This document shows, in pieces, positions 14,551 to 40,085 of a stretch of DNA of 64,000 bases. Each line of letters begins with the position of its first letter. Position 1 is the first letter of the stretch. The DNA comes from Candidatus Deferrimicrobiaceae bacterium (GTDB taxonomy: Bacteria > Desulfobacterota > Deferrimicrobia > Deferrimicrobiales > Deferrimicrobiaceae), in assembly GCA_963792415.1 (NCBI GenBank), contig CAWBVY010000004.1, positions 288,001 through 352,000 on the forward strand, read 5' to 3'. Under the pieces are notes generated by a model. The model saw only the letters and a list, made by a program, of their open reading frames with translations, did not search any database and had not been told where the DNA came from. A program made the translations under genes and the position numbers.

Positions 14551-16191
14551 ATGGCAAAGATACCCGAGAGCTACCTGCCGCCGCCCGAGCTGCGGCCCCA
14601 GCGGATCTACACGCTTGATGAGTTCAAGAACATCCCGCAGAAGTTCAACTCCACCGAAGTCCTCCTCGACCAGACGGCAGCGAAATACGGCGACAAGGTC
14701 GCGATCTACTTCGACGAGCAGCGGGTCACCTACAAGCAGCTCCAGGCGAGCGTCAACCGCGTCGCCAACGGGCTGAAGAAGCTCGGCGTCGAGGAGGGGG
14801 ACCGCGTCCTGATGCGGATGCCCAACATCGTGCCGATCATCGTGTGCAACTTCGCGATCATCAAGATCGGCGCCGTCTCCCTTCCGACCTCGGTCCTCTT
14901 CTCCCGGTCGGAGATCGCGCATGTCGCGAACGTGTCGGAAGCGAAAGTGATCATCGTCGCGGCGGTGATGCTGGCAGAGCTGGAGGCCGCGAAGGCCGAC
15001 CTGAAGTTCGCCAAGACGATCGTCGTGGTGGGCGGCGACGAGAACGAGGTCCGGGCGAAGGGGTACGTCCCGTACGCCGACCTGATGAAGAACCCCGACC
15101 AGTGCGAGGCGGTCAAGCGCGACCGGATGGACGTTTCCGTCCTCCTCTTCACCTCGGGGACGACGGGGCTCCCCAAGGGGACGGCCCACTTCATGGAAGA
15201 GTCGCTGATCGTCGCCGACGGGTTCGGGAAGTATTGCTGGGAGGTGTCCGACAAGGACGTGATCGGCGGCCCGGCGCCCCTCGCGATGGCGGCGGGGTAC
15301 TCCACCGTCGGTGTCATCCCGTTCCGGTTCGGCGCGGCCGTCTCCCTCATCGGGAAGTTCGACCCGGTCGCGATGTTCAAGAACATCCAGAACCACAGGA
15401 TCACGATCATGACGGCCCTTCCGACCGCGTACCGGAAGATGCTGGTCGACATCAACCCGAAAGAGTGGGACTACTCCTCCCTGCGGTTCTGCACCGGCGG
15501 CGGCGAGGCGCTCACCGCCAAGACGTACCTCGACTGGAAGGAGAAGTTCGGGCTGGAGATCTACGAGGGGCTCGGCACCACCGAGATGATGTTCGTGTTC
15601 ATCTCCGCGGCGGTGACGAAGAAGGTCAAGCCAGGACCGATCGGGACGGCGTGCCCCGGCTACGACGTCCGCGTGGTGAACGAGAGCTTCGAGCAGGTCA
15701 AGCCCGGCGAGGTCGGCAAGATGATCGTCCGGGGACCCACGGGGACGATCTACTGGAAGGACAACGAGAAGCAGAAGTCGTCGGTCCGCGACGGCTGGTG
15801 CCTGGCGGGCGACGTCGTCACGATGGACGAGGACGGGTACGTCCAGTTCCTCTCCCGCGAGGACGACCTGATCAAGTCGTCCGGCTACCGGATCGGGCCC
15901 GAGGAGATCGAGGAGGCCCTGGTGATGCACCCGTCCGTCGCCGACGCCGGGGTGGTCGGCGTTCCCGACCCGGTGATCGGGCAGAAGACCAAGGCGTTCG
16001 TGCAGCTCAAGCCCGGCGTCGCGCCGTCCGAGGAGCTGAAGAAGGAGCTCGTCGAGCATTGCAAGGGGAAGGTCGCCGTGTACAAACTGCCGCGGGAGAT
16101 CGAGTTCATCGACGCGATGCCCCGGACGGCGGTCGGCAAGCTGCTTCGCCGCATCCTGCGCCAGCAGGAGATCGACAAGGCGAAGAAGTAA
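14551..16191 (+). CDS. Acyl/aryl-CoA ligase, 2-aminobenzoate/benzoate-CoA ligase-like
   Basis: FTSGTTGLPKG, YEGLGTTE, SGYRIGPEEIEE, PRTAVGK; N-terminal YLPPPEL. Confidence 0.88.
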   Translation: MAKIPESYLPPPELRPQRIYTLDEFKNIPQKFNSTEVLLDQTAAKYGDKVAIYFDEQRVTYKQLQASVNRVANGLKKLGVEEGDRVLMRMPNIVPIIVCNFAIIKIGAVSLPTSVLFSRSEIAHVANVSEAKVIIVAAVMLAELEAAKADLKFAKTIVVVGGDENEVRAKGYVPYADLMKNPDQCEAVKRDRMDVSVLLFTSGTTGLPKGTAHFMEESLIVADGFGKYCWEVSDKDVIGGPAPLAMAAGYSTVGVIPFRFGAAVSLIGKFDPVAMFKNIQNHRITIMTALPTAYRKMLVDINPKEWDYSSLRFCTGGGEALTAKTYLDWKEKFGLEIYEGLGTTEMMFVFISAAVTKKVKPGPIGTACPGYDVRVVNESFEQVKPGEVGKMIVRGPTGTIYWKDNEKQKSSVRDGWCLAGDVVTMDEDGYVQFLSREDDLIKSSGYRIGPEEIEEALVMHPSVADAGVVGVPDPVIGQKTKAFVQLKPGVAPSEELKKELVEHCKGKVAVYKLPREIEFIDAMPRTAVGKLLRRILRQQEIDKAKK

Positions 16192-16230
16192 CGGGGGATA
16201 CCGCGCTTCACGGCGCGGTGGCGGGACCGG

Positions 16231-16268
16231 AGCCCGGGGGCGTGCCGCCCCCGGGCTTTCTTCGTTTC
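16231..16268 (+). terminator. Intrinsic terminator of the CoA operon
   Basis: 12-bp stem AGCCCGGGGGCG-TGC-CGCCCCCGGGCT followed by a T-rich tail. Confidence 0.8.
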
Positions 16269-16275
16269 CGCCCCG

Positions 16276-17565
16276 TCATTCCCCGAGGAACATCCCGATC
16301 CGCCGCGTGGACGGGACGTTGTCGAAGATGCATTTCAGGACGGCCAGGATCGGGATCCCCAGCACCAGCCCCATCCCCCCCCACAGCCAGCCGAAGAAGA
16401 GCAGGGCCATCGTCGAGGCGGTCGCGTTCAGCCGCACCCCCCTGCCCACCAGCCTCGGCGTCAGGTAGTTCGCCGCCACGACGTGGAAAACGGTCACCGA
16501 GGCGACCAGGACCACAAAGGGCCCCCCCGACTCGAAGGAGACGAGGCCGACGACGACGCCCGGGAGCAGCGCGAGCGGCAGGCCGAGGTAGGGGACGATG
16601 CTGAGCGTCCCGCTCAGGATTCCCAGCACCACCGGGTACGGGAGCCCCACGAGCAGGTAGACCAGGACGGTCGCCACGGAGAGGAGGATGGCAATCACGG
16701 CGTTTCCGAGGAGGAACTTCCGCATCATCCACTCGATGTCCAGGAGGATCCCCCCCACCGTCGCGCGCTGCACTTCCGGGAAGAGCTCCCGCGTCCGCCG
16801 GGTGAGCGGTTCCCGGTCCGCGAGGATGAAGTAGACGAGGAAGGGGATGAAGCCGAAGGCGAAGAGGACGCCGGTCAGGGACCCGAGGCCGTGGAGCAGC
16901 GACTCCGTGAACGGTTCCGCATCCTGCATGAGGACGGGCGGGGCGGATTTCGGGCTCGCGGAGGCCGCTGCCGGGGGTGCGATGCGGCGGCCCGCCTCGG
17001 CGACGACGCGGTTGAGCTCCTCGGCCCTGTCCGCCAGGCTCGCGACGATCGGGGCGGCGCGGATCTTTTCGGCGATCGCGGGGATCTCCGCGAAAAAGCT
17101 TTCCGCGCGCAGGTACGTGCCGTAGAAAATCCCGTAGAGCATCGCGACGAACAGGAAGACCACGATGCCGCTGGCGTGAGGACGCCGCAAGGGGGTCCGT
17201 TCGCAGAGCAGGTGGACCAGCGGTTCGAGGGCGAAGGCCAGCAGCATGGAGGAGAACAGGGTGATGAAGACGGAGGCGGCGTAGTGCAGGAGGGCGATGA
17301 CGCCGAGGATCGCGATGACGGTCGCACTCGCCCGGATGAGTTTCAGATCCGGCCCGGGCGGCCGCGCTTCCTCCTTCGTCCCCGAAATCGGGACCTCCGC
17401 AGGGGCGTCGGCCCCCCGGGCTCCGGCGGCTCGCGCCGCTTCCTCCTTCGCGGCTCGCGCCGCTTCCTCCTTCGCGGCTCGCGCCGCTTCCTCCTTCGCG
17501 GCTCGCGCCGCTTCGGAGGACAAGTCGGAGGACAAGCCCTGGTTCTTTTCTTGCGGTGGCGTCAT
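16276..17565 (-). CDS. AI-2E (PerM) family transporter with repeat-derived N-terminus
   Basis: LSIVPYLG, NYLTPRLVG, GWLWGGMGLVLGIP motifs. Confidence 0.9.
   Translation of the reverse strand: MTPPQEKNQGLSSDLSSEAARAAKEEAARAAKEEAARAAKEEAARAAGARGADAPAEVPISGTKEEARPPGPDLKLIRASATVIAILGVIALLHYAASVFITLFSSMLLAFALEPLVHLLCERTPLRRPHASGIVVFLFVAMLYGIFYGTYLRAESFFAEIPAIAEKIRAAPIVASLADRAEELNRVVAEAGRRIAPPAAASASPKSAPPVLMQDAEPFTESLLHGLGSLTGVLFAFGFIPFLVYFILADREPLTRRTRELFPEVQRATVGGILLDIEWMMRKFLLGNAVIAILLSVATVLVYLLVGLPYPVVLGILSGTLSIVPYLGLPLALLPGVVVGLVSFESGGPFVVLVASVTVFHVVAANYLTPRLVGRGVRLNATASTMALLFFGWLWGGMGLVLGIPILAVLKCIFDNVPSTRRIGMFLGE
17374..17537 (-). repeat. In-frame palindromic elements plus 24-bp tandem array (3 full units and 1 partial)
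   Basis: (GCGGCTCGCGCCGCTTCCTCCTTC)n at 17426-17514; shares 36 bp exactly with 23388-23423. Confidence 0.92.
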
Positions 17566-17645
17566 CGTCTCACTTTACCGTTTTTCCGGTACCCCGCCTA
17601 CGCCCGTTTGACATCCGGCCGGGGAGAGGCGATCCTGACGAAGAG

Positions 17646-18071
17646 ATGGCGGCTCCCCTCTCGCACACGATCGAGATCCGCGTCCGGTTCGGCGAGACCG
17701 ACCCGTACGGCGTGGCGTACTTCGCCGCGATCCTCGACTACTTCAAGCGCGGGATGGACGAGTTCCTCCGGTCCCGCGGACTCTCTCCCGACCTCGCGTA
17801 CCGGAACCCGAAGCGGAACTACGGGTTCCCCGTCGTGGCTACCGCCTGCCGCTACAGGGCCCCGGTCCGGTTCGACGACCTGCTGATGCTGCGGACCCGC
17901 GTCGTGCGGGTGGAGAAAAGCGGGGCCACGTTCGGCTTCTCCCTGTTCCGCACGGAGGCGGGGAAGGATATCCTGGCGGCGGAGGGACGGATCTCCTGCC
18001 GCTCCATCGACTCCTCCTGGACGCCGATCCCCCTGCCGGCGGAGCTGATAAACATCTTATCCGCCCGCTGA
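17646..18071 (+). CDS. Acyl-CoA thioesterase (4HBT/YbgC hotdog fold)
   Basis: VRFGETDPYGVAYF, CRYRAPVRFDD. Confidence 0.88.
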   Translation: MAAPLSHTIEIRVRFGETDPYGVAYFAAILDYFKRGMDEFLRSRGLSPDLAYRNPKRNYGFPVVATACRYRAPVRFDDLLMLRTRVVRVEKSGATFGFSLFRTEAGKDILAAEGRISCRSIDSSWTPIPLPAELINILSAR

Positions 18072-18860
18072 GGCGGCGCGTGCAGCGTCCAGCTTCCTCC
18101 GGAAGCGGTTGACCAGCGCCGCCACCGCCGGCGGGGAAAGTTCCCTCCCCTCGATCTTGAAGACATCCGCCCCCGCGGCGATCCAGACCGGGAGTTCGTC
18201 CTCGAGGGAGTTGGGCGCTTCCGGGACCGGCAGGGTCCGGCAAACCAGGCGGCAGCTCCCCCCCCGTTTCGCGGAGGCCGTCCCGCCCCCGATCCCCTCG
18301 ACGACGTATCCGGTCAACCCGCACTTTCCGTGAAGGAGGAACTCCGGGCGGGAGTACGCGAAGACCTCGATCCGAAGCCCCGACGCCTTCTTGATGGGGG
18401 GAATCTCCCCGGGCCGGACCGCCGAGGGGAGGACGACGGCGACGACCCCCAGGTCCCGGTACGCACGGGCATCCTCGGGGTTGAGGACGGAGAGTCCGAC
18501 CGAGGCGCAGAGCGGCCAGCCGGGGAACTCCCGCCGCGCGAGCGCGATCACCCCGGGATCGTTCAGGATCACCTCGTCGACCCCTGCGTCCCGGAGCCGA
18601 TGGAGGTACACCAGGAAGGCGGGGAGATCGCCGGACGACGGAACGGCGTTGATCGCGGCGTGAAGCCGCGCCCCCGCCCGCAGGCAGACGGAAACCGCCG
18701 CCCCGACTTCCTCCGGGGAGAGCCCCGTCCTGCCGCCACGGGAGAGGGAACGGACCCCGACGTAGACGGCGTCGGCCCCCGCCGACAGCGCCGCCTCGAC
18801 CGCGGGGAGGGATCCCGCCGGCGCGAGGAGGGTCGGTGATGGGGGGGACGCCAGGGCCAT
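18057..18860 (-). CDS. Peptidase U32 family protein (short, atypical Cys set)
   Basis: LLAPAGS..AGADAVYVG, GSCRLVCR, FKIEGR. Confidence 0.88.
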   Translation of the reverse strand: MALASPPSPTLLAPAGSLPAVEAALSAGADAVYVGVRSLSRGGRTGLSPEEVGAAVSVCLRAGARLHAAINAVPSSGDLPAFLVYLHRLRDAGVDEVILNDPGVIALARREFPGWPLCASVGLSVLNPEDARAYRDLGVVAVVLPSAVRPGEIPPIKKASGLRIEVFAYSRPEFLLHGKCGLTGYVVEGIGGGTASAKRGGSCRLVCRTLPVPEAPNSLEDELPVWIAAGADVFKIEGRELSPPAVAALVNRFRRKLDAARAASAGG

Positions 18861-18932
18861 GCGCCATTATATCGCGGCCGTTCATCGCTTGCTTCGGCGT
18901 GGCGCACGATCGAGGTGCTGTTTATTTTTTGG

Positions 18933-18960
18933 TTGACTTGAAAATATTCCTGAGTATCGT
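18933..18960 (+). promoter_or_regulatory. Probable sigma70 promoter of the nuo cluster
   Basis: TTGACT-16 nt-TATCGT with an upstream T-tract. Confidence 0.55.
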
Positions 18961-19087
18961 AGTGTCGATTGTATGCAAGCCGCACCCCCGAGGCATGAAG
19001 CCGTTCCGCTCGGCACAACGTAAATAAAACGCGCCGGGCGGCGGTTTCGTCGCCATCTTCCGGCCTAGGACGGGACAAGAAGAGACG

Positions 19088-19483
19088 ATGCTGGTCGAAT
19101 ACGCAACCGTTCTTGTGTTCATCGTACTTGGGGCGGTCACCGTCGCCTTGATGCTCGGGCTCTCGCGCTGGTTCGCCCCGACCGCCCCCTCGGCCGCGAA
19201 GTCCTCCACCTACGAGTGCGGGGAGGTCCCGTACGGCTCCTCATGGGTGCAGTTCAACATCCGATTCTACGTGGTGGCGCTCATCTTCATCATCTTCGAC
19301 GTCGAAGTGGCGCTCCTGTACCCCTGGGCCGTGGTCTTCCAGCGGCTGGGCTGGCTCGCCTTCATCGAGGCGTTCATCTTCATCGTGATTCTGCTCGCCG
19401 GGCTGGCGTACCTGTGGAAGGAGGGGGACCTCGAGTGGGTCCGCACAATGCAGGACGCCCCGGCGAAGAAGGGTGCGAAATGA
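19088..19483 (+). CDS. nuoA: Complex I subunit A (copy 1)
   Basis: [19 protein letters not shown]. Confidence 0.95.
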
Positions 19484-20013
19484 GTTCTGATCCGGCGCAC
19501 GCCCAGCCCCCGGGACACGGGAGTGCCCCGGTTCCGGGGCTCGGGCCCGAGGCGCACGTCATGGTGGGCAACGCGGACCTGTTCGTCAACTGGGCTCGAA
19601 AATCCTCGCTCTGGTACCTCCTGTTCGCCACGGCGTGCTGCGGCATCGAGCTGATGCAGGCGGGCGCGTCGCGGTACGACATGGACCGGTTCGGCGCGGT
19701 CTTCCGCGCCACCCCCCGCCAGGCGGACCTGATGCTGGTGGCCGGCACGATCACCCACAAGATGGCGGAGCGGGTAAAGCGCCTCTACGACCAGATGCCC
19801 GAGCCCAAGTACGTGATCTCCATGGGATCGTGCGCCAACACCGGGGGCCCGTTCTTCAAGGACTCGTACTGCGTGGTCAAGGGCGTGGACCTGATCATCC
19901 CGGTGGACGTCTACATCCCCGGCTGCCCCCCTCGCCCCGAGGCGCTGATCGACGGGATCATGAAGTTGCAGAAGATCATCATGCAGCGCAAAAATTACGG
20001 CGCCAAGGCGTGA
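19480..20013 (+). CDS. nuoB: Complex I subunit B (copy 1)
   Basis: [23 protein letters not shown]. Confidence 0.95.
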
Positions 20014-20029
20014 GGCGAAGGGAAACCGG

Positions 20030-20500
20030 TTGGAAGGCCAGGCGATTTTCGACACATTGAAGGGGAAGTTCGGCGACGCCGTCGTCGAGCTGCAGGGGGA
20101 GGGCTATTCCCCCGCCTTCGTGGTCGTCGCCGCGGCGGCGGTGAAAGAGGTCTCCCGGTTCCTAAAGGAGGACCCGAGCCTCTCCTTCGACGTCCTCATG
20201 TGCCTTTCCGGGGTGGATTACAAGGAGAAGTTCGCCGTCGCCTACCATCTCCACTCCCTGAAACACCGCCACGCGATCGGTCTCAAGGCGATGCTCCCCC
20301 GCGAGAACCCGTCCCTCCCGACGGTGGACGACGTCTGGCCCGCCGCCAATTTCAACGAGCGGGAGGCGTTCGACCTGTTCGGGATCGTGTTCGAGGGCTC
20401 GAAGGACCTCCGCCGGATCCTTCTCCCGCCGGACTGGGAGGGGCACCCGCTGCGGAAGGATTACAAGTATCCCGACTTCTACCACGGGATCAAGGTATGA
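20030..20500 (+). CDS. nuoC: Complex I subunit C (copy 1)
   Basis: EREAFDLFGI, GHPLRKDY. Confidence 0.93.
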   Translation: MEGQAIFDTLKGKFGDAVVELQGEGYSPAFVVVAAAAVKEVSRFLKEDPSLSFDVLMCLSGVDYKEKFAVAYHLHSLKHRHAIGLKAMLPRENPSLPTVDDVWPAANFNEREAFDLFGIVFEGSKDLRRILLPPDWEGHPLRKDYKYPDFYHGIKV

Positions 20501-21627
20501 CGACCCGGTCCAACGCGCTCCCCACGCAGGAGATGACGATCAACATGGGGCCGCAGCACCCGAGCACCCACGGGGTGCTCCGGGTGATCCTCACCACCGA
20601 CGGCGAGGTGGTGACCCGCGCGGTGCCCGACGTCGGCTACCTGCACCGGGGGCTCGAGAAGATCGGCGAGCGCGTCACCTACGCCCAGTTCATGCCGTTC
20701 ACGGACCGCCTCGACTACCTCGCGGCGATGAACTGCAACTGCGCCTGGGCGTGGGCGGTCGAGAAGCTGGCGAAGATCGAGGTTCCCGAGCGCGCCGAGT
20801 TCCTGCGCGTCATCGTCTCCGAGCTGAACCGGATCTCCTCCCACCTGATCGCGTTCGGGTCGTACACCGCGGACATGGGGGCGTTCACCCCGTTCCTGTA
20901 CGCCATCCGGGAGCGGGAGCAGGTCAACGACCTTTTCGAGATGCTCTGCGGGAACCGCCTGACGTACAACTACGCCCGCGTCGGCGGCGTCTCGGGCGAT
21001 GCCCCTCCGGGCTTTCTCGAGAAGACGAAGGAGTTCCTCGACTACTTCGAGCCGAAGCTCGACGAGTACAACAACCTCATCTCCTACAACAAGATCTTCG
21101 TCCACCGGCTGGCGAACGTCGCCGTGATCCCCGCGGAGGAGGCGGTCGCCTACGGGCTGACGGGCCCCAACCTGCGCGGCTCCGGCGTCCACTTCGACCT
21201 TCGGAAGGACGAGCCGTACTCCGTCTACCCGAAGTTCGATTTCAAGGTCTGCGTCGGCACCGGGGAGCGCGGCACGCTCGGCGACTGCTTCGACCGGTAC
21301 ATGGTGCGGATCAACGAGATGCGCGAGAGCGTCAAGATCGTCCGGCAGGCGGTCGCGCAGATCCCCGACGGGCCCGTGCTGGCGAAGGTCCCCCGCGTCT
21401 TCAAGCCGCCGGTCGGCGAGACGTACTTCCGCTCCGAGTGCCCGCGCGGGGAGACGGGGATCTACCTGATCAGCGACGGCTCGGTGAACCCGTACCGGCT
21501 GAAGATCCGCACCGGCTCCTTCGTGTCGATGAACATCTTCGAGAAGATCACGAGAGGGCTGATGATCGCGGACATCGTCGCCGTCATCGGCAGCTTCGAC
21601 ATCATCCTTCCGGAGATCGATCGATAG
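20497..21627 (+). CDS. nuoD: Complex I subunit D (copy 1)
   Basis: NMGPQHPSTHGVLR, GYLHRG, ends EIDR; no NiFe CxxC motifs. Confidence 0.96.
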   Translation: MTTRSNALPTQEMTINMGPQHPSTHGVLRVILTTDGEVVTRAVPDVGYLHRGLEKIGERVTYAQFMPFTDRLDYLAAMNCNCAWAWAVEKLAKIEVPERAEFLRVIVSELNRISSHLIAFGSYTADMGAFTPFLYAIREREQVNDLFEMLCGNRLTYNYARVGGVSGDAPPGFLEKTKEFLDYFEPKLDEYNNLISYNKIFVHRLANVAVIPAEEAVAYGLTGPNLRGSGVHFDLRKDEPYSVYPKFDFKVCVGTGERGTLGDCFDRYMVRINEMRESVKIVRQAVAQIPDGPVLAKVPRVFKPPVGETYFRSECPRGETGIYLISDGSVNPYRLKIRTGSFVSMNIFEKITRGLMIADIVAVIGSFDIILPEIDR

Positions 21628-22742
21628 TGGAAGCCCTGGCGATATCCCTCGTGAACGCCATCCCGCTGCTGGCGGGCGTCCCCCTGTGGACGGTGACGCT
21701 GCTGCTGATGGTGGTGGTGGCGGCGGTCATCCTCGTGTTCGCCCTGACGTTCGAAGGGGTCGGGTCGCTGGTTCTGCGCAAGGTCGCAGGCGACATCCAG
21801 GCCCGGATCGGACCGAACCGGGTCGGCCCCAACGGGATGCTCCAGTTCCTGGCCGACGGCGTGAAGCTGGTCCTCAAGGAGGACCTCATCCCGGCGAGCG
21901 CGGACCGGCTCCTCTTCAAGCTGGCGCCGTACTTCGCCTTCGTAGGCTCCTTCGCCGCCTTCGTGGTCGTCCCCTTCGGCGTGGGACTGATCGCCGCCGA
22001 CCTGAACATCGGCATCTACTACGTGATGGCGGTCACCTCCCTGGTGGTGATCGGGGTCCTGCTCGCGGGGTGGTCCTCCAACAACAAGTGGGCGCTCCTC
22101 GGAGGCATGCGGGCCGCCGCGCAGATCGTCTCCTACGAGATCCCGGTGGGGATGGCCCTGATCCCCGCGGTGCTCATCGCCGGCTCCCTGTCGCTGCAGG
22201 ACATCGTCCGTTCCCAGGGGGGACTGTTCGGTGTCTTCGGGTGGAACCTGTTCCACAACCCCTTCACCTTCTTCTCCTTCTTCCTCTACTTCACGGCGGC
22301 GCAGGCCGAGACCAACCAGACCCCGTTCGACCTCCCCGAGGCCGAGTCGGAGCTGGTCTCCGGCTACAACGTGGAGTACTCCGGGATCCGCTTCGGCCTC
22401 TTCTTCCTGTCGGAGTTCGGCGACATGTTCATCGTGGCGGCGCTGGCCACCGCCTGCTTCCTGGGAGGGTGGAACGTCCCGTACTTCAACGCCGCGACGC
22501 TTCCGTGGATCTGGGGGAACCTCCTCTCCCTCGGCGTCTTCCTCGGGAAGGCGTTCACGATGGTGCTGATCATGATGTGGGTCCGCTGGACGCTGCCCCG
22601 CCTGCGCGTGGACCAGTTGATGCGGATGGCGTGGAAATACCTGGTGCCGCTTACGTTCGTCAACCTCCTCGGCGTCTCCCTCTGGCTCCTGGTCTTCCAG
22701 GGCAAGGGGATCCCCGGGATGATCGCCTCGCTGTTCGGATGA
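21627..22742 (+). CDS. nuoH: Complex I subunit H (copy 1)
   Basis: RIGPNRVG, PFDLPEAESELVSG, PRLRVDQL. Confidence 0.95.
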   Translation: MEALAISLVNAIPLLAGVPLWTVTLLLMVVVAAVILVFALTFEGVGSLVLRKVAGDIQARIGPNRVGPNGMLQFLADGVKLVLKEDLIPASADRLLFKLAPYFAFVGSFAAFVVVPFGVGLIAADLNIGIYYVMAVTSLVVIGVLLAGWSSNNKWALLGGMRAAAQIVSYEIPVGMALIPAVLIAGSLSLQDIVRSQGGLFGVFGWNLFHNPFTFFSFFLYFTAAQAETNQTPFDLPEAESELVSGYNVEYSGIRFGLFFLSEFGDMFIVAALATACFLGGWNVPYFNAATLPWIWGNLLSLGVFLGKAFTMVLIMMWVRWTLPRLRVDQLMRMAWKYLVPLTFVNLLGVSLWLLVFQGKGIPGMIASLFG

Positions 22743-22746
22743 GACC

Positions 22747-23529
22747 ATGGGCCTGAAGGCATACATGAACGACATCGTCGAGGCCGTGGTCACCACGGCG
22801 AAGGGGATGCGGATCACCGCGCGCTACGGCGTGAACCCGAAGGAAGAGGTCACGCTGCAGTACCCCGAGGAGCGGTGGGAAATTCCCGAGGGGTACCGCG
22901 GCTTCCTCCACAACGATGTCAAGAAATGCACCGCGTGCACGATGTGCGTGAAGGTGTGCCCTATCGACTGCATCTCCCTCGAGTCGGTGCGGGGGGCGGA
23001 CAAGAAGATGGTTCTCGCCTCCTACGACATCAACATCGGGCGGTGCATGTACTGCGGGCTGTGCGTCGAGGTGTGCCCCCCGAAGTCCCTGAAGCACACG
23101 GCCGGCTACGAGATGGCGTCGGTGGCCCGCGGGGAGCTGATCCTGAACTTCATCGCGGAGGACGCGGCGGAGATCAAGGCCAGGGTGGCGCGCCAGGTGG
23201 CCGAGGCGGCGGCCAAGGAGGCCGAAGCCAAGAAAGCCGCCGAAGCCCAGGCCGCCGAAGCCCAGGCCGCGGGAAAACCTGCGCAGGCCCCCCTTTCGGG
23301 GGCTGCCAAAGTGGCGGAGGTCCCTTCATCGGGGACGGCGGAGGTCCCCTCTTCGGGGACGAAGTCCGCGGACCTGTCCTCCGACCCGTCCTCCGAAGCG
23401 GCGCGAGCCGCGAAGGAGGAAGCCGGCAAGGCCGCTGGTGTGGAGCCGAAGCCGGCGAAGGAAGAAGCTGCCAAGGCCCCGGTCGTGGAGCCGAAGGCCG
23501 CGAAGGAGGAGGAGAAGAAACCGGAATGA
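22747..23529 (+). CDS. nuoI: Complex I subunit I (copy 1) with long Ala/Lys/Glu repeat tail
   Basis: Two CxxCxxCxxxCP motifs; about 120-aa low-complexity C-terminus. Confidence 0.93.
   Translation: MGLKAYMNDIVEAVVTTAKGMRITARYGVNPKEEVTLQYPEERWEIPEGYRGFLHNDVKKCTACTMCVKVCPIDCISLESVRGADKKMVLASYDINIGRCMYCGLCVEVCPPKSLKHTAGYEMASVARGELILNFIAEDAAEIKARVARQVAEAAAKEAEAKKAAEAQAAEAQAAGKPAQAPLSGAAKVAEVPSSGTAEVPSSGTKSADLSSDPSSEAARAAKEEAGKAAGVEPKPAKEEAAKAPVVEPKAAKEEEKKPE
23313..23423 (+). repeat. In-frame palindromic elements in the nuoI tail (element A x2, element B x1)
   Basis: 24-bp tandem GGCGGAGGTCCC-n7-GGGAC x2; TCCTCC-GAA-GCGGC-GCGA-GCCGC-GAA-GGAGGA hairpin. Confidence 0.92.
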
Positions 23530-24059
23530 GCGGACCCGCGGAATACATCTTCTACGCCGCGGCGGCGATGACCGTGGGGGCGGCCATACTGGTGGCCATC
23601 CTCCCGAACATCCTCTACGCGGCCGTGGCGCTCCTGTTCTCCTTCGCCGGCGTGGCGGGGCTGTACGTCCTCCTTTCCGCGGATTTCCTCGCCGCGACCC
23701 AGATCCTGGTCTACGTGGGGGGGATCATCGTCCTGCTCCTGTTCGCCGTCTTCCTGTCGAACCGGATCTCCGAGGCGAAGATCACCAACCCCACCCACTT
23801 CCGCCTTCCCGCCGCGGCGATCTGCCTGGTCCTGTTCGGCGTTCTCTCGTACGCCGCCGTGTCGACGCCCTACGCCGTAAAGCAGGGGGTCTATCTCCCC
23901 ACCACCGCGGACATCGGCGAACTGCTGATGACCCGCTACCTGCTCCCCTTCGAGGTCGCGTCGGTGCTGCTGCTGGCGGCGCTCATCGGCGCGGCGCTGC
24001 TGTCCCGGCCGGACCGGGCGGCTCCGGATACGGGAGAGATGGAGGAAGGGAAGCGATGA
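23526..24059 (+). CDS. nuoJ: Complex I subunit J (copy 1)
   Basis: QILVYVGGI, YLLPFEVASVLLL. Confidence 0.93.
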   Translation: MSGPAEYIFYAAAAMTVGAAILVAILPNILYAAVALLFSFAGVAGLYVLLSADFLAATQILVYVGGIIVLLLFAVFLSNRISEAKITNPTHFRLPAAAICLVLFGVLSYAAVSTPYAVKQGVYLPTTADIGELLMTRYLLPFEVASVLLLAALIGAALLSRPDRAAPDTGEMEEGKR

Positions 24060-24358
24060 CGCTCGACAAGCTCCTCGTCATCGCCGCCGCTCTCTTCTGC
24101 TGCGGCCTCTACACCGTGATGACCCGCCGCAACGCCGTGGCGGTGCTGATGGGGGTCGAGCTGATCCTGAACGCGACCAACATCAACTTCGTCGCGTTTT
24201 CCTTCTTCCTCAACCGGGTGATGGGCGGGCAGATCTTCGCCGTCTTCGTCATCGTGCTCGCTGCGGCCGAGGCGGCGGTGGCGCTGGCCATTTTCCTGCG
24301 GATGTTCTCGACCACGGGGACCGTGGAAGTCGACGCCGCGGACCAGTTGAAGGGGTAG
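24056..24358 (+). CDS. nuoK: Complex I subunit K (copy 1)
   Basis: GVELILNA, AAAEAAVALA. Confidence 0.94.
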   Translation: MTLDKLLVIAAALFCCGLYTVMTRRNAVAVLMGVELILNATNINFVAFSFFLNRVMGGQIFAVFVIVLAAAEAAVALAIFLRMFSTTGTVEVDAADQLKG

Positions 24359-24361
24359 CCG

Positions 24362-26491
24362 GTGATCCGATACGCCTACATCATCCCGTTCCTCCCGCTG
24401 CTGTCCTTCTTCATCAACATCGCGGTCGGCAAGCGGCTGCCGCGCAAGGGGGACTGGCTCTGTCTGGGCACGATCGCCGTGGCCCTCGCGATGTCGATCG
24501 GGATCTTCTACGAGGTCTTCGGGGCGTACGACCCGAACTTCCGGTACCATGTCGTCTTCCCCTGGATCACGGTAGGGGACCGCGCGCTGCTCAACACCGG
24601 AATCCTCATCGACAACCTCACCGCGGTCATGCTCCTGGTGGTCACCATCGTGTCGACGCTGGTCCACCTGTTCTCCATCGGGTACATGCACGGCGACCCA
24701 AGGTACAGCCGGTACTTCGCCTACCTGTCGATCTTCTCCTTCTCGATGCTGGGGCTGGTCCTCGCCGAAAGCTTCCTGTTCATCTACATCTTCTGGGAAC
24801 TGGTGGGGCTTTCCTCCTACCTCCTGATCGGCTTCTGGTTCGAGAAGAAGTCGGCGTCCGACGCGGGGAAGAAGGCGTTCATCGTCAACCGGGTGGGCGA
24901 CTTCGGGTTCCTCGTCGGTATCCTGATCATCTACGCCACCTGCGGCGTGCTGGGATACGACCAGGTGTTCCTGGCGATCGGGGAGGGGAAGCTCTCCGGG
25001 ACGCTGCTGACCCTTGCGGGAATCGGGGTCTTCTGCGGCGCCATCGGCAAATCCGCGCAGTTCCCGCTGCACGTCTGGCTCCCCGACGCGATGGAAGGCC
25101 CCACGCCGGTCTCCGCGTTGATCCACGCGGCCACCATGGTCGCCGCGGGCGTCTACCTCGTGGGGCGGGTCTACCCGATGTTCACCCCCGACGCGTTCCT
25201 GGTCATCGCCTACTTCGGCCTGATCACCCTGTTCCTCACCGCAACGATCGCCCTGGCCCAGAACGACATCAAGAAGGTGCTGGCGTACTCGACCTGTTCC
25301 CAGCTCGGCTACATGGTCATGGGGCTCGGGGTCGGGGGCTACACGGCGGGACTCGCGCACCTGGCCACCCACGCGGCGTTCAAGGCGTGCCTCTTCCTCG
25401 GATCGGGCTCCGTGATCCACGCCGTCCACAGCCAGGACATCCAGGAGATGGGCGGCCTCCGGAAGAAGATGCCGATCACGTTCGTCACCTTCCTGATCGC
25501 CACGCTGGCGATCTCGGGAGTCCCCGGCTTCTCCGGCTTCTACTCCAAGGACATGATCCTGGGAGCGGCGCTTGAATTCGGCATGAAGAGCGCGAACCCG
25601 CTGCACATGGTCTTTTTCCTCGGTGCGCTGTTCACCGCCGGGTTGACCGCCTTCTACATGTTCCGCCTGGTGATCCTCACCTTCTTCGGCCCGCCGAAAG
25701 ACCACCACAAGTACGACCACGCACACGAGTCGCCAGCGAACATGTGGGTCCCCCTCGTGATCCTGGCGGGCCTCTCCTTCTCCTTCTGGTACTCCGGGTG
25801 GTTCGGGACGCTGATCCAGAAGCCGACGTCGGTCGCCAACCTGGCCGCGATTTCGGCTCCGGCGAAGGTCGCCACGATGGAGCACGCCGCCGTCATGGCG
25901 CCCGCGCCGCACGGAGAAGCGGAGAAGACCCCGCATGCAGCGGCTCCGCCCGTTCACGGAGAGGTGCACGGCGAGGCTCCGGCAACGCACGGGGGGGCCG
26001 GGGACGAAGCCTCGCACGATGCCCATATCGCGCACACGGCCCACACGTATGCGATGTACTCCTCGGTGGCGGTGGGCACCCTCGGGATCTTCCTCGCCTT
26101 CGTGGTGTACTCCTTCGGGTGGATCAACCCGGACCGCGTCATGAACGCGTTGAAGCCGCTCCACACCTTCCTGCAGAACAAGTGGTACTTCGACGAACTG
26201 TACGAAGCGACGGTGATCAACGGCTCCAAGGCGTTCTCCAGGGGGCTGTACTGGTTCGACCTGCACGTGGTGGACGGCCTGGTGAATCTCACCGCGCAGC
26301 TCGGGGTCTTTGTCTCGTTCCTCGTCGGGAAGTTCGACGATTACGTCGTCGACGGGGCCGTCAACGGCCTGGCCAGCGCGACGACCGGCAGCGGATCGGT
26401 CCTGCGCCGGCTCCAGACCGGAAAGCTGTACCACTACGTGTTCGTGCTGGCAGGCGGTGCGCTCATCATATTCCTGATCAAGGCGTTCTAA
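24362..26491 (+). CDS. nuoL: Complex I subunit L (copy 1)
   Basis: WLPDAMEGPTPVSALIHAATMV; His-rich insertion. Confidence 0.96.
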   Translation: MIRYAYIIPFLPLLSFFINIAVGKRLPRKGDWLCLGTIAVALAMSIGIFYEVFGAYDPNFRYHVVFPWITVGDRALLNTGILIDNLTAVMLLVVTIVSTLVHLFSIGYMHGDPRYSRYFAYLSIFSFSMLGLVLAESFLFIYIFWELVGLSSYLLIGFWFEKKSASDAGKKAFIVNRVGDFGFLVGILIIYATCGVLGYDQVFLAIGEGKLSGTLLTLAGIGVFCGAIGKSAQFPLHVWLPDAMEGPTPVSALIHAATMVAAGVYLVGRVYPMFTPDAFLVIAYFGLITLFLTATIALAQNDIKKVLAYSTCSQLGYMVMGLGVGGYTAGLAHLATHAAFKACLFLGSGSVIHAVHSQDIQEMGGLRKKMPITFVTFLIATLAISGVPGFSGFYSKDMILGAALEFGMKSANPLHMVFFLGALFTAGLTAFYMFRLVILTFFGPPKDHHKYDHAHESPANMWVPLVILAGLSFSFWYSGWFGTLIQKPTSVANLAAISAPAKVATMEHAAVMAPAPHGEAEKTPHAAAPPVHGEVHGEAPATHGGAGDEASHDAHIAHTAHTYAMYSSVAVGTLGIFLAFVVYSFGWINPDRVMNALKPLHTFLQNKWYFDELYEATVINGSKAFSRGLYWFDLHVVDGLVNLTAQLGVFVSFLVGKFDDYVVDGAVNGLASATTGSGSVLRRLQTGKLYHYVFVLAGGALIIFLIKAF

Positions 26492-26509
26492 GAACGGAGG
26501 TGGTCGTCC

Positions 26510-28039
26510 GTGGGGTTCATCGATAGTCACATTCTCTCGTTCATGACGTTCCTGCCGCTCCTCGGTGCGGCGGTGATCCTCTGCGTGCCGAAGGGGAAGG
26601 ACGAGACGATCAAGTGGATCGCCGCCGCCGCCTCCTTCCTGCCGGTGCTGCTGGCGGTTCGCCTCTGGTTCATCTACGACCGGACCCTGGCCGGCGTCAA
26701 CGTGGCCAGCCAGTTCCAGTTCGTGGAGCACTACTCCTGGATCCCCTCGATCAACGTGGAGTACTTCGTGGGGGCGGACGGCATCTCGATGCCCATGCTC
26801 CTCCTGACGGCCCTCCTGTCGTTCCTGGCGGTCATCGGCTCCTGGGGGATCGACAAGAAGATCCGGGGGTACATGGCTCTGTTCCTCCTCCTCGAGACCG
26901 GCATGATGGGCACCTTCATCGCCCTCGACTTCTTCCTCTTCTACGTCTTCTGGGAAGTGATGCTGCTGCCGATGTACTTCCTCATCGGCGTCTGGGGCGG
27001 ACCGCGGAAGGAGTACGCGGCGATCAAGTTCTTCCTGTACACCCTGGCCGGCTCGATCCTGATGCTGATCGTGCTGCTGGCCCTCTACTTCAACACGACG
27101 AATCCCGAGACCGGAGCGCACACCTTCAACCTGCTCCACTACATGTCCCAGGGCACGCACAACGGCTGGCTGAAGGGGTTCGACGTCCGCATCCTCCTGT
27201 TCCTCGGCCTGTTCATCGGCTTCGCCATCAAGGTGCCGCTCTTCCCGTTCCACACCTGGCTCCCCGACGCCCACGTCGAGGCGCCCACCGCCATTTCGGT
27301 CATCCTGGCGGGCGTCCTCCTGAAGATGGGGACGTACGGCCTGATGCGGATCTCCTTCCCGATCTTCCCCGACGTGACGGTGTATTTCGCCCTCCCGATG
27401 GCGATCCTCGGCGTGATCAACATCATCTACGGCGCCCTGTGCGCGATGGCGCAGTCCGACCTGAAGAAGCTGGTCGCCTACTCCTCCGTCAGCCACATGG
27501 GCTTCTGCCTCCTCGGCATGGCGGCGCTGACGCCGCTGGGGATGGTCGGCGCGTCGATGCAGATGTTCTCCCACGGCATGATCACCGCCATGCTCTTCTT
27601 CCTGGTCGGCGTGGTCTACGACCGGGCGCACCACCGCCAGATCGACGGCTTCGGCGGCCTGGGCGTCGTGGTTCCCATCTATACCGCCTTCATCGGCTTC
27701 GCGTTCTTCGCGTCCCTGGGGCTGCCCGGGCTGTCGGGCTTCATCGCCGAGCAGTTGGTCTTCCTCGGCTCCTTCCCGGTGTTCCGGACGCTGGTGATCA
27801 TCGGCGCCGTGGGGATCATCTTCGTCGCGGCGTTCCATCTCTGGGCGCTGCAGCGGGTCTTCCTCGGTCCGCTGAACCCGAAGTACACCACCCTCGAGGA
27901 GATCAACGCTCGGGAGATCTTCTGCCTGGCGCCCCTGGTGGTCCTGATCCTGATCGTCGGCGTCTGGCCGATGCCGGTGATGAATCTCATGAACGCCTCC
28001 CTGGTGCGGCTGGTCGACCTCGTGAAGGCGGTGATCTAA
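26510..28039 (+). CDS. nuoM: Complex I subunit M (copy 1)
   Basis: [22 protein letters not shown]. Confidence 0.96.
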   Translation: MGFIDSHILSFMTFLPLLGAAVILCVPKGKDETIKWIAAAASFLPVLLAVRLWFIYDRTLAGVNVASQFQFVEHYSWIPSINVEYFVGADGISMPMLLLTALLSFLAVIGSWGIDKKIRGYMALFLLLETGMMGTFIALDFFLFYVFWEVMLLPMYFLIGVWGGPRKEYAAIKFFLYTLAGSILMLIVLLALYFNTTNPETGAHTFNLLHYMSQGTHNGWLKGFDVRILLFLGLFIGFAIKVPLFPFHTWLPDAHVEAPTAISVILAGVLLKMGTYGLMRISFPIFPDVTVYFALPMAILGVINIIYGALCAMAQSDLKKLVAYSSVSHMGFCLLGMAALTPLGMVGASMQMFSHGMITAMLFFLVGVVYDRAHHRQIDGFGGLGVVVPIYTAFIGFAFFASLGLPGLSGFIAEQLVFLGSFPVFRTLVIIGAVGIIFVAAFHLWALQRVFLGPLNPKYTTLEEINAREIFCLAPLVVLILIVGVWPMPVMNLMNASLVRLVDLVKAVI

Positions 28040-28084
28040 GTGGCCACTTTCACCAATACGGCTGCATTCGAAAGGGGCCGCTAG

Positions 28085-29563
28085 ATGTTCCTGGGCAACC
28101 TCGCCAGCGTGGGGTACTTCCTGCCGGAGTTCGCCGTCACGGCGACGATCCTCCTGCTGGTCGTGCTCCACGTGGTCACGAAGAGCCCGCAGTCCACCGC
28201 GTCCGGGTTCCTGTCGCTTCTCGGGGTGGGGGCCGCGATCCTCCTCGCGGGGGTCGCGCCTGCGGGCGCGGGCCGGTCGATCTTCGAGGGGATGGTGGCC
28301 CACGACGGTTTCGCGGTTTTCTTCAAGGTCCTGACCGCCCTGGCCACCCTCGTGGTGATCTTCATGTCGATGGACAGCAGGGACCTGGCCGGCCGGAGCC
28401 AGGCGGAGTACTACATCTTCCTGCTCTCCACCCTGCTCGGGATGTTCCTGCTCTCCTCGGCGACCGACATCGTGATGCTGTACCTGGCGCTGGAACTGGT
28501 CTCCATCCCGTCGTACCTGCTGGCGGGATACCTCAAGGGGCAGGAGCATTCCACCGAGGCCGCGATGAAATACGTGGTGTACGGGGCCACGGCGTCGGGC
28601 GTCATGATCTACGGCTTCTCCATCCTTTTCGGGCTGACCGGGTCCACCCAGGTCGCGGAGATCGGGCGGAGCCTGGCGGCCGGGAAGGCGACGCTGCCCA
28701 TGCTGCTGGCCGCCGTGATGGTGGCCGTGGGGTTCGGGTACAAGATCGCCGCGGTGCCGTTCCATATGTGGAGCCCCGACGTGTACGAGGGGGCCCCCAC
28801 GCCCGCGACCGCCTTCTTCTCCGTCGGGCCGAAGGCGGCCGGGTTCGCCGTCCTCGTCCGCTTCTACTACACGGTGTTCGCCGCCGCGGACCCCGGGACG
28901 GGCCTGTGGAGCCTGACCTCCGCGGTGGACTGGCCGTTCCTGTTCGCCGCGTTGTCGGCGCTGACGATGACCGTCGGGAACCTGGTCGCCGTCAAGCAGA
29001 ACAACGTGAAGCGGCTTCTGGCCTACTCCTCGATCGCCCACGCGGGATACATGCTCATGGGGTTCGTGCTTCTGACTTCCGCGGGAATCGAGGCGATCCT
29101 GTTCTACCTCGTGGTCTACCTCTTCATGAATCTGGGCGCCTTCTACGTCGTGGTCCTGGTGAGCAACGCGACCCTCGGGGAGGAGATCTCCGACTTCACG
29201 GGACTGGGGAGCCGCGCCCCCTTCGCGGCGGTCGTGCTCGCCATCTTCCTCTTCGCCCTGACCGGGATCCCCCCGTTCTCCGGCTTCATCGGAAAGGTCT
29301 ATCTGTTTGCCGAGGTCATCCACCGTGGCGTATACTGGCTCGCGGTCGTCGCGGGCCTGAACAGCGTGGTGTCGCTCTATTACTACGCGCGGATCGTCCG
29401 GGCGATGTTCCTCGAGGAACCGAAGGATGCGTCGGCGATCCCCGTTCCCGCGGTCTCCATGGCGATGCTCGTCCTGCTCGCGGCGCCGACGATGATCCTC
29501 GGCGTATACTGGGAGCCGGTGGCACGGATCGCCGCCGATTCCGTCCGGATGCTGGCGTTCTGA
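28085..29563 (+). CDS. nuoN: Complex I subunit N (copy 1)
   Basis: PFHMWSPDVYEGAP, KRLLAYSSIAHAGY. Confidence 0.96.
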   Translation: MFLGNLASVGYFLPEFAVTATILLLVVLHVVTKSPQSTASGFLSLLGVGAAILLAGVAPAGAGRSIFEGMVAHDGFAVFFKVLTALATLVVIFMSMDSRDLAGRSQAEYYIFLLSTLLGMFLLSSATDIVMLYLALELVSIPSYLLAGYLKGQEHSTEAAMKYVVYGATASGVMIYGFSILFGLTGSTQVAEIGRSLAAGKATLPMLLAAVMVAVGFGYKIAAVPFHMWSPDVYEGAPTPATAFFSVGPKAAGFAVLVRFYYTVFAAADPGTGLWSLTSAVDWPFLFAALSALTMTVGNLVAVKQNNVKRLLAYSSIAHAGYMLMGFVLLTSAGIEAILFYLVVYLFMNLGAFYVVVLVSNATLGEEISDFTGLGSRAPFAAVVLAIFLFALTGIPPFSGFIGKVYLFAEVIHRGVYWLAVVAGLNSVVSLYYYARIVRAMFLEEPKDASAIPVPAVSMAMLVLLAAPTMILGVYWEPVARIAADSVRMLAF

Positions 29564-29590: not shown

Positions 29591-29974
29591 ATGGTCGGAT
29601 TTCCCGCAACCGTGGACTTCTCGAACCCGTACTTCGCGGTTCTCCTGCTTCTAATCATCGCGCTGGTGATGTCGGTGGGATTCGTCCTCCTCTCCCAGGC
29701 GCTGGGCCCGAAGCGGTACGACCGGGTCAAGTACGGCGTGTACGAGTGCGGCGTCGACCCCCTCACCCCGGCCGCCGTGCGCGTCTCCGTCAAGTTCTAC
29801 CTGATCGCGATCCTGTTCATCCTCTTCGACCTCGAGGTGACCTTCCTCTACCCGTGGGCGGTCCTGTTCCGTTCGCTCGGGTTGTTCGGCTTCATCGAGA
29901 TGGCCGTCTTCGTCGGAATCCTGCTGGTCGGGCTGGTCTACGCGTGGAAAAAGGGAGCCCTCGAATGGCAGTGA
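29591..29974 (+). CDS. nuoA: Complex I subunit A (copy 2)
   Basis: [19 protein letters not shown]. Confidence 0.95.
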
Positions 29975-30465
29975 AGCGCGGGAAGGACGGCGCCTCCGGC
30001 TACGCGCTCACGACCCTCGAGTCGCTGATCGCCTGGGGGAGGAAATACTCCCTCTACCCGTTCACCTTCGCCACGGCGTGCTGCGGCATCGAGGTGATGG
30101 GGGCGTTCGGGACCCACTACGACCTGTCCCGCTTCGGCGCCGAGGTCGTCCGTTTCTCTCCCCGGCAGGCGGATGTGCTTCTGGTGGCGGGGACGATCAA
30201 CTACAAGATGGCTCCCGTGCTGAAGCGGATCTACGACCAGATGCTCGAGCCGAAGTGGGTGATCTCGATGGGCGCGTGCGCCTGCTCCGGCGGCTTCTAC
30301 AACAACTACACGGTCCTGCAGGGGATCGACAAGATCGTTCCGGTCGACGTCTACATCCCCGGGTGCCCGCCGAACCCCGAGGGGATCATCGACGCCGTTG
30401 TGCAGATCCAGAAGATCATCGAGACCGGCGCGCCCCGCGCGGCGGAACGGTGGCCGTTGAAATGA
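29965..30465 (+). CDS. nuoB: Complex I subunit B (copy 2)
   Basis: [22 protein letters not shown]; start may be GTG 29971. Confidence 0.95.
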
Positions 30466-30481
30466 AGGGGCGGGAAGCGGC

Positions 30482-30958
30482 GTGAGCATCGTCCTCGAGA
30501 GGCTGCGGGAGCGGTTCCCGGCGGAAGTGGAGTCCACCCACTCGGACTTCGGGGACGACACGGCCTTAGTGCGGCGGGAGCGGATCGTCGAGATCCTCGC
30601 GTTCCTGCGGGACGACCCGGAGCTGCTTTTCGACTTCGCGATGGACCTGACCGGCGTCGACTATCTCGGGGAGGAGCCCCGCTTCGAGGTGGTCTACCAC
30701 CTCTACTCGCTGGAGAAGAAGCGCCGCGTCCGGATCAAGGCGCGGCTCCACGAGGACGACCCGGTGATCGACACGGCCGTCCCGGTGTGGCCCGGAATCG
30801 ACTGGTACGAGCGGGAGGCGTGGGACATGTACGGGATCGTCTTCCGCGGCCACCCGAACCTGAAGCGGATCCTGATGTACGAGGCGTTCGAGGGGCACCC
30901 GTTGCGCAAGGATTACCCGAAGGCGAAGCGTCAGCCCACGATCGGGCCGGAGGAGTAG
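30482..30958 (+). CDS. nuoC: Complex I subunit C (copy 2)
   Basis: EREAWDMYGI, GHPLRKDY. Confidence 0.95.
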   Translation: MSIVLERLRERFPAEVESTHSDFGDDTALVRRERIVEILAFLRDDPELLFDFAMDLTGVDYLGEEPRFEVVYHLYSLEKKRRVRIKARLHEDDPVIDTAVPVWPGIDWYEREAWDMYGIVFRGHPNLKRILMYEAFEGHPLRKDYPKAKRQPTIGPEE

Positions 30959-30965
30959 GAAGGCG

Positions 30966-32653: not shown

Positions 32654-32672
32654 GGGGCTGACGCGGACGGCC

Positions 32673-33941: not shown

Positions 33942-33949
33942 ACGAGACG

Positions 33950-36621: not shown

Positions 36622-36637
36622 AGGCGGAAACCGGACG

Positions 36638-37123: not shown

Positions 37124-37130
37124 GGGGGCG

Positions 37131-37619: not shown

Positions 37620-37635
37620 AGATGCGGAGCGCCGG

Positions 37636-37931
37636 ATGATCGCACCGTCGGCATACCTGCTCCTCTCTGCGATCCTGTTCGGGATCGGGGTCGTCGGGGT
37701 GGTGGCGCGGAAGAACGTCCTCATCATCCTGATGAGCGTCGAGCTGATGCTGAACGGCGTGAACGTGGCGTTCGTGGCGGCCGGCTCGTACCTGGGCGAC
37801 GCCACCGGCGGGGTCTTCGCTTTCATGGTGATGACCGTGGCGGCCGCCGAGGCGGCGGTGGGGCTCGCGCTTCTGATCGCGCTCTACCGGCTGAAGGAAA
37901 CGGTCGACATCACGGAACTCAAGGTTCTCAA

Positions 37932-37938
<7 letters not shown>
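37636..37938 (+). CDS. nuoK: Complex I subunit K (copy 2)
   Basis: [17 protein letters not shown]. Confidence 0.95.

Positions 37939-40085
<2,147 letters not shown>

Follow-up and report, generated by a model that had tools for sequence, protein, structure and literature searches.

Ectopic gene conversion between inverted repeats of one chromosome is known, as for tufA/tufB, and so are EAAAK-type helical spacers, single α-helix (ER/K) segments and coding tandem repeats in low-complexity tails. Among palindromic DNA elements, the accessible part of PMC3733652 describes repetitive extragenic palindromic sequences (REPs) as high-copy and mostly extragenic, with a GTAG or CGTC tag at one end and some copies inside genes. 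The Rickettsia palindromic elements (RPEs) are described, in the accessible part of PMC10969869, as being about 150 bp long, falling into ten families and having integrated 44 times in unrelated R. conorii genes. Here we analyse two palindrome-like elements, A and B, which lie in frame in two unrelated genes of a Candidatus Deferrimicrobiaceae bacterium, one encoding an AI-2E family (PerM-type) transporter and the other, nuoI, a subunit of a complex-I-like enzyme. Both genes belong to a 64,000-nucleotide stretch (contig CAWBVY010000004.1, positions 288,001 to 352,000; G+C 67%), hereafter the window, whose own numbering is used throughout. The elements had been proposed, from the letters of the window alone (the sequence-only reading), to be members of a family of small mobile hairpins.

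Compared with REPs, element B is a two-stem palindrome of 32 nt, within the range of 20-40 bp, though recodings of its peptide give similar hairpins; unlike REPs, all of its copies are genic and few, no tag adjoins it, and no RAYT-like gene (the REP-associated tyrosine transposase) was found in the window. As with RPEs, palindromic DNA is read in frame within protein genes and adds peptide at a tolerated place, but the units are 24-36 nt long (the exact tract measures 36 nt), tandem and confined to two genes, and dispersed copies were absent from unrelated genes and intergenic DNA of the window and the three related genomes searched. With in-frame minisatellites, or variable-number tandem repeats (VNTRs), the locus shares periods that are multiples of 3, units up to 100% identical, a copy number of 0-4 and a position outside the folded core, whereas here one unit set is common to two functionally unrelated genes, which stand 5.8 kb apart in inverted orientation. 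As in ectopic gene conversion, an identical tract lies in two loci with differing surroundings, and the modules common to both genes are as similar (91-100%) as the orthologous cores are at the nucleotide level (89-94%); unlike the usual conversion pairs, the host genes are no paralogues, their relationship being limited to the tails. We consider it likely that the palindromic elements are units of short in-frame tandem repeats within two homologous hypervariable tails. What is unusual is the use of a single module pool by two neighbours that are otherwise unrelated.

Elements A and B and their repeat arrays

The window contains two exact occurrences of the 32-nt B string (17489-17520, minus strand; 23389-23420, plus strand) and no more when up to 3 mismatches are allowed, and none of 100 dinucleotide shuffles gave two occurrences. 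The exact match around B covers 36 nt and extends to 47/49 in blastn (23375-23423 vs 17534-17486), and the B pair, 54 nt at 93%, is the longest of the 95 inverted-repeat pairs of the window. The pattern of element A has three matches, at 17374-17400 (minus), 23314-23340 (plus) and 23338-23364 (plus), against a chance expectation of 0.01; the best pair, 17374-17400 with 23338-23364, is identical at 24/27 positions. All copies are in sense and in frame in both genes, where they read DLSSxxSSEAARAAKEEA and AEVPxSGTK, while the order of A and B is opposite between the transporter gene and nuoI. The copies are located in the first 75 codons of the former and the last 70 codons of the latter, B itself lying about 45 nt into the transporter open reading frame (ORF) and about 110 nt ahead of the nuoI end. 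The predicted tail peptides comprise SSEAARAAKEEA and AEVPxSGTK. String searches and blastn thus reproduced the matches, coordinates, frames and opposite order that the sequence-only reading had given.

What that reading had missed is that the A, B and DLSS stretches are tandem-repeat units. Tandem Repeats Finder (TRF) called arrays in both tails (Table 1), and element B at 17489-17520 proved to be the first unit of the 24-nt array of the transporter together with the preceding TCCTCC. The periods, 12, 24 and 45, are all divisible by 3 and the units run head to tail, as in VNTRs. The 45-nt units of nuoI recur in transporter tails of other genomes. The complete module set of the tails consists of AEVPSSGT (24 nt), DLSS (12 nt), EAARAAKE (24 nt), xGKAxGxEPKPAKEEAA / KAPVVEPKAAKEE (45 nt) and ANLPSEAAKVAKEGEE. 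A perfect 15-nt tandem (23236-23270, 2.3 copies, AAEAQ) was also observed upstream of element A, in the helical stalk of the NuoI tail, and the number of AEAQ/AKAE-type units likewise varies among NuoI orthologues.

The codons tell how the two genes came to share these units. In the likely genes of the window, CGA makes up 2.7% of the Arg codons and GAA 18% of the Glu codons, and the 11 shared B codons include CGA once and GAA twice. Given the peptide and the codon usage of the window, the exact coding of SSEAARAAKEE has a probability of about 7.5e-6. Since the codons are identical even where rare, DNA has been copied between the tails, and on this codon evidence the two genes share modules at the DNA level rather than by protein convergence, as had been argued from identity at synonymous sites. 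Ala/Glu/Lys-rich low-complexity tails are indeed common, and repeats are generally known to mislead assemblers; yet convergence on such peptides would not reproduce 11 codons of that joint probability, and an assembly chimera, which the sequence-only reading had named as a possible refutation, is contradicted by the same B DNA in the transporter genes of two independent assemblies and in the nuoI of a third, as well as by dozens of independently predicted proteins that carry the modules. We regard either origin as extremely improbable.

Although the B codons are identical in all 5 DNA copies, only 10-17% of same-residue codons differ between the cores of these genomes, so that 11 unchanged codons would be met by chance with a probability of roughly 0.25. 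A nucleotide-level constraint, which had been inferred from the cross-species identity of B, was dropped on this ground.

Tail variation among related genomes and orthologues

A scan of genome contigs with a degenerate B pattern returned 8 loci, none with two matches. Three of them belong to relatives and carry one match each, L003 and L005 in the transporter N-terminus and L006 in the NuoI tail; L006 also contains its transporter gene, which is without B. Counted in the DNA, B units number 0 in the L006 transporter, 1 in the NuoI of the window, the NuoI of L006 and the L003 transporter, 2 in L005 and 3.7 in the transporter of the window. The six DNA tails align collinearly, with DLSS units followed by 0-4 B units and then GKA…EPKPAKEE, and the copy number thus differs among close relatives at one collinear site, as is usual for VNTRs. 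Filled and empty B sites, a comparison that the sequence-only reading had proposed, differ by exactly 24 nt, bounded on both sides by GAAGC. Modules vary in copy number by steps that are multiples of three bases, which keeps the reading frame intact. Across the two genes, the NuoI tail of the window is 91% identical to the L005 transporter tail over 68 nt and again over 56 nt, and 96% identical to the L006 transporter tail over 26 nt. In about 100 kb of DNA (the window, L003, L005 and L006), all blastn-short matches at E < 1e-3 fell in the two tails and none outside them.

The remaining five scan loci come from unrelated bacteria beyond the clade (two from Brevibacterium and one each from Phycisphaerae, a betaproteobacterium and Zhouia); they also fold as hairpins and were treated as pattern-forced chance matches; their shape is uninformative because the search pattern fixes 8/11 stem pairs. 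In the Phycisphaerae and betaproteobacterium metagenome-assembled genomes (L002, 6977-7007; L004, 10001-10031), the hairpin of the same shape has the central stem pair flipped (GCCGC…GCGGC), with stop codons nearby.

At the protein level, 446 transporter and 527 NuoI matches were obtained at E ≤ 0.001, of which the 120 listed ones were examined in each case and joined by the protein of the window, giving sets of 121. The listed transporter orthologues show 74-90% identity, and the source names several of them Ca. Deferrimicrobium or Deferrimicrobiota. Their core is conserved, and their first 20-75 residues form a mosaic differing in length and content, composed of DLSS repeats, EAA[RQN]AAKE, xGKxGSGEPKPAKEEAA, APVVEPKAAKEE, ANLPSEAAKVAKEGEE and AEV[PH]xSGTKEERRPGPDL. 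Both A and B are missing from P0007, which among the matches listed has the highest identity (90%, over an alignment covering 91% of the query). In the listed NuoI orthologues, the C-terminal tail is 12 to 107 residues long and forms a mosaic of those modules that also compose the transporter tails. Both termini are therefore hypervariable among the listed orthologues, in agreement with the proposal that they tolerate insertions.

The two tail sets have 80 distinct 7-mers in common, as against a mean of 6.4 and a maximum of 17 when the NuoI tails were residue-shuffled 200 times. At least one 7-mer is shared with the other set by 55 of the 121 NuoI tails and by 40 of the 121 transporter tails, the latter count treating as non-sharing the 17 transporter tails that the junction pattern did not parse. 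Judged from these comparisons with shuffles, homology between the tails of the two genes extends far beyond A and B and is found throughout the clade. B-type units number 0 in 98, 1 in 20 and 3 in 3 of the 121 transporter tails and are missing from 113 of the 121 NuoI proteins, and A-type units number 0 to 4 per NuoI tail. On the core trees, the A, DLSS and EPKxAKE modules show phylogenetic signal, with 0 to 4 of 200 shuffles reaching the observed value. Across a candidate phylum, then, two unrelated neighbours share one pool of fast-turnover tail modules, which is of modest but real interest.

Further searches were of limited reach. The 75-residue NuoI tail, compared by phmmer with 1.84 billion representative proteins at E ≤ 0.001, gave one match, a 42-residue tail-like fragment, which is weak negative evidence as such a search is insensitive to short low-complexity matches. 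When the NuoI tail was used to count carriers among longer proteins (E ≤ 10), 4 NuoI orthologues were recovered among 164 candidates, and transporters with 15 identical residues were missed; this census was set aside as too insensitive. A full-text search, at the level of titles and abstracts, found no description of a shared NuoI/transporter tail, and we do not claim that there is none.

We propose that, between conserved anchors, in-frame units would expand and contract, their copy number changing by replication slippage or unequal exchange. The similarity of the two genes probably stems from one tail having been copied long ago, in inverted orientation, into the other gene, and the inverted tails, 5.8 kb apart, could since have been refreshed by gene conversion. 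If paired genomes showed ongoing exchange, the locus would be a natural case, and a compact one, in which ectopic conversion shuffles peptide modules among different proteins.

Several observations weigh against the reading of the elements as tandem units of homologous tails or against parts of its mechanism. Gene conversion between the tails is something that we infer: both tails of one genome could be compared in two genomes only, and while those of the window share A and B, those of L006 share little, with B in NuoI and not in the transporter. Synonymous differences (TTG/CTG/CCG) are seen in the flanks of B within the window. The cross-species identity of B, as calculated above, is not informative. 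The 24-nt difference bounded by GAAGC could stand for a target duplication or for a repeat boundary, and the B copy count for the source organism is that of the 64-kb window, not of the whole genome. The presence of B is close to random on the core trees: on the FastTree of transporter cores it requires 19 changes for 23 carriers among 121 (shuffled mean 21.3, with 23 of 200 shuffles needing no more), and on that of NuoI cores 7 changes for 8 carriers. This pattern and the 24-nt difference agree with slippage, deletion and recombination inside a repeat. Such patchiness would also be expected of a mobile cassette; otherwise many independent losses, recombination or a poorly resolved FastTree are needed, and trees of such close sequences may indeed be poorly resolved. 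Finally, the structure models of both proteins are poor, with mean predicted local distance difference test (pLDDT) scores of 45.9 and 56.8, and the single B unit in NuoI is predicted as non-helical with low pLDDT.

Structure predictions were accordingly used solely for the helix over the repeat array, as weak evidence. The EAARAAKE array of the transporter is predicted as one helix over residues 15-49, with a mean pLDDT of 59-93 in 10-residue blocks, and the remaining tail parts are predicted without regular structure. Like EAAAK and ER/K spacers, EAARAAKE is Ala-rich and puts Glu and Lys/Arg 3-4 residues apart, and the array is predicted to form one long helix; unlike them, this helix rests on the poor overall model just mentioned, and the single NuoI unit does not share it. 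The tails probably serve as extensions, tolerant and either flexible or helical, that lie on the cytoplasmic side.

A more far-reaching alternative is that the two tails are kept as paired recombination substrates, inverted and in frame, to either side of nuoA-nuoI, and pass peptide cassettes, such as the 24-nt EAARAAKE bounded by GAAGC, to each other in both directions by a templated process. We think this unlikely. If true, it would mean cassette exchange between two unrelated proteins; the tails might further be a docking or spacing module common to the PerM-type transporter and the 11-subunit complex-I-like enzyme that ties the two together, and the 5.8-kb segment could be inverted by exchange, with in-frame chimeras of NuoI and the transporter as the outcome. 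No Fe-S domain, and thus no fused NuoI-transporter protein, was detected in the 120 listed transporter matches (lengths of 235-751 residues searched), which is weak evidence.

Hairpin stability and mobility

Element B folds as the sequence-only reading had drawn it, at -23 kcal/mol and with z-scores of -3.9 and -4.8 against dinucleotide shuffles; the three copies of element A fold no better than shuffles (z -1.1, -0.4 and -0.2). The B hairpin combines a GNRA loop with a symmetric internal loop (GAA/GAA) and an outer stem in which an anti-Shine-Dalgarno-like UCCUCC is paired to a Shine-Dalgarno-like GGAGGA. We then applied a recoding null, in which the peptide is kept and the codons are drawn from the usage of the genome. 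Under this null, at least the stability of B was reached by 17.9% of 3000 synonymous recodings of its peptide, and the corresponding values for the two copies of A tested are 19.5% and 52.7%. Among 20000 recodings of SSEAARAAKEE, the commonest outcome has 9/11 stem pairs and 6% keep all 11.

The origin of this pairing is apparent from the codons. A single third-position pair excepted, GCN-GCN-x-GCN-GCN, encoding Ala-Ala-x-Ala-Ala, is complementary to itself, and G-GAG-GA (Lys-Glu-Glu) forms pairs with TCC-TCC (Ser-Ser). With GC-rich codons, repeat peptides rich in Ala, Ser, Glu and Lys are thus self-complementary by construction, so that hairpin scores based on nucleotide shuffles overstate the structure, and recoding of the peptide is the fair control. 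Because synonymous recodings commonly fold as well as the natural DNA, the hairpin is a by-product, and the palindromy a side effect of coding the peptide with this codon bias. The units inside the transporter array lack the outer stem. In NuoI orthologues with AEAPSSGT or AEIPSSGT, Thr is kept, and, going by the codon table, the A stem would lose a pair with no compensation.

These results bear on the possibility that the B hairpin is a selected element at the RNA or DNA level, tuning mRNA stability or ribosome traffic, with the peptide being secondary. The stability of the hairpin fits such a function, as do the identity of all five DNA copies, which includes four third-codon positions in loops, and the use of the rare CGA and GAA, the very codons that the GCGA loop and the internal GAA loop require. 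However, the invariance is expected from the low synonymous divergence among these genomes, nearly a fifth of the recodings fold as well, and the outer stem is absent inside the array. Moreover, the position of B is inconsistent, near the start of one ORF and near the end of the other, and most orthologues of both proteins are without it. A search of 16000-25000 against Rfam at E ≤ 1 gave no match on A or B, the sole match being a sub-threshold small RNA (sRNA) at 16135-16263. A selected hairpin therefore appears doubtful to us.

The same tests apply to the proposal of a mobile family, in which A and B would be small RPE- or REP-like palindromic elements inserted in frame at tolerant termini by an enzyme encoded elsewhere in the genome. 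The exact 36-nt match between unrelated genes, rare codons included, would be accounted for by mobility, as would the two-stem hairpin of B with its scores against dinucleotide shuffles, the patchy occurrence of B on both core trees and the 24-nt difference between filled and empty sites with GAAGC at its bounds. Against it, the elements are tandem units, every copy is in sense, in frame and directly after a DLSS module, and the stability of the hairpin is ordinary for its peptide. The same two host genes alone are involved in 4 genomes, with one pattern match in each of the 3 related ones and no other copy in the roughly 100 kb searched, which comes close to the two-copy situation that the sequence-only reading had itself named as counting against it. 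Neither a GTAG nor a CGTC tag was found beside B, whose flanks read …GACCCG/GACTTG before and AGCCGG/AGCGGC after the palindrome. A Pfam scan of 50 ORF translations of the window found no transposase, HUH or GIY-YIG domain, in line with the earlier remark that the window holds no mobilising enzyme. Of the original interpretation, then, the DNA copying and the tolerant termini stand, whereas the mobile hairpin family is in our view quite improbable. A striking in-frame palindrome common to unrelated proteins can arise without a mobile element.

Genes and features of the locus

The coordinates of the two genes, their tails and the repeat arrays are collected in Table 1.

Table 1. Genes, tails, repeat arrays and element copies of the locus, in the numbering of the window
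Feature	Position	Strand	Basis
AI-2E family (PerM-type) transporter gene, 429 aa	16276..17565	-	ORF and translation; Pfam PF01594, E 2.1e-44, residues 83-417
Hypervariable N-terminal tail of transporter (residues 1-75)	17341..17565	-	Between conserved start and conserved RPGPDLxLIRA junction
Element A copy in transporter (AEVPISGTK)	17374..17400	-	Pattern match
Perfect 24-nt in-frame array (EAARAAKE)n, transporter	17426..17514	-	TRF period 24, 3.7 copies, 100% matches
12-nt tandem (xLSS / DLSS), transporter, carrying TCCTCC strings	17513..17536	-	TRF period 12, 2.0 copies, 100% matches
nuoI of 11-subunit nuoABCDHIJKLMN-type cluster, 260 aa	22747..23529	+	4Fe-4S dicluster Pfam domains, residues 56-113; neighbouring nuo genes identified
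Hypervariable C-terminal tail of NuoI (after RQVAE, residues 154-260)	23206..23529	+	Tail variation among listed orthologues
24-nt tandem encoding AEVPSSGT twice (element A), nuoI	23313..23361	+	TRF period 24, 2.0 copies, 92% matches
12-nt tandem (DLSS/DPSS), nuoI	23371..23396	+	TRF period 12, 2.2 copies, 92% matches
Single B unit with TCCTCC/GGAGGA outer stem (SSEAARAAKEE)	23389..23420	+	Exact 32-nt match; minimum free energy fold -23 kcal/mol
45-nt tandem, EPKxAKEE-type (…EPKPAKEEAAKAPVVEPKAAKEE…), nuoI	23406..23507	+	TRF period 45, 2.3 copies, 85% matches
Shine-Dalgarno-like GGAGGAGGAG, then nuoJ ATG overlapping nuoI stop (ATGA)	23506..23528	+	Sequence; GGAGGAGGAG 10 nt upstream of nuoJ ATG

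Conserved anchors bound both tails: the MTPxQ start and the RPGPDLxLIRA junction in the transporter, and the helix ending …RQVAEAA and the last residues EEKKPE in NuoI. The start MTPPQE is kept in most listed transporter orthologues. The nuoI orthologues are annotated by the source as NADH-quinone oxidoreductase subunit I. Downstream, nuoJ begins at 23526 and reads MSGPAEYIFY…, and the nuoJ frame at the same place in L006 reads …MSGPADYIFY…. In the otherwise hypervariable NuoI tail, the conserved EEKKPE end probably also serves as the ribosome-binding region of nuoJ, and it is probably conserved because its codons contain GGAGGAGGAG ahead of the nuoJ ATG. In one metagenome protein (P0170, 380 residues), a NuoI core with a short tail runs straight into NuoJ, which reflects either a fusion of NuoI with NuoJ or a frameshifted gene call where the two genes overlap (ATGA).

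Two nuo clusters stand in succession in the window, at 19088-29563 and 29591-43142. In the first, nuoD is succeeded by nuoH and nuoEFG are missing; nuoF (32673-33941) is present in the second. It is the 11-subunit cluster that encodes the tailed NuoI, and the second NuoI (36638-37123) is without such a tail. This double arrangement is that described for Ca. Deferrimicrobium borealis SHF-111 in the accessible part of PMC9386147.

On the other side, the longest ORF of a thioesterase-like gene (17556-18071, plus strand; 4HBT domains from residue 43) starts 10 nt inside the divergent transporter gene. This arrangement (17556-17611) leaves almost no intergenic DNA, so that the promoters must sit in the coding or leader regions of each other's genes. 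Far from the tails, a 384-nt tandem repeat at 62907-63732 (2.2 copies, 86% matches) contains strings reading C-Q-x-C-H-G, a CxxCH haem-binding-like motif, and may represent a multihaem cytochrome with repeated domains.

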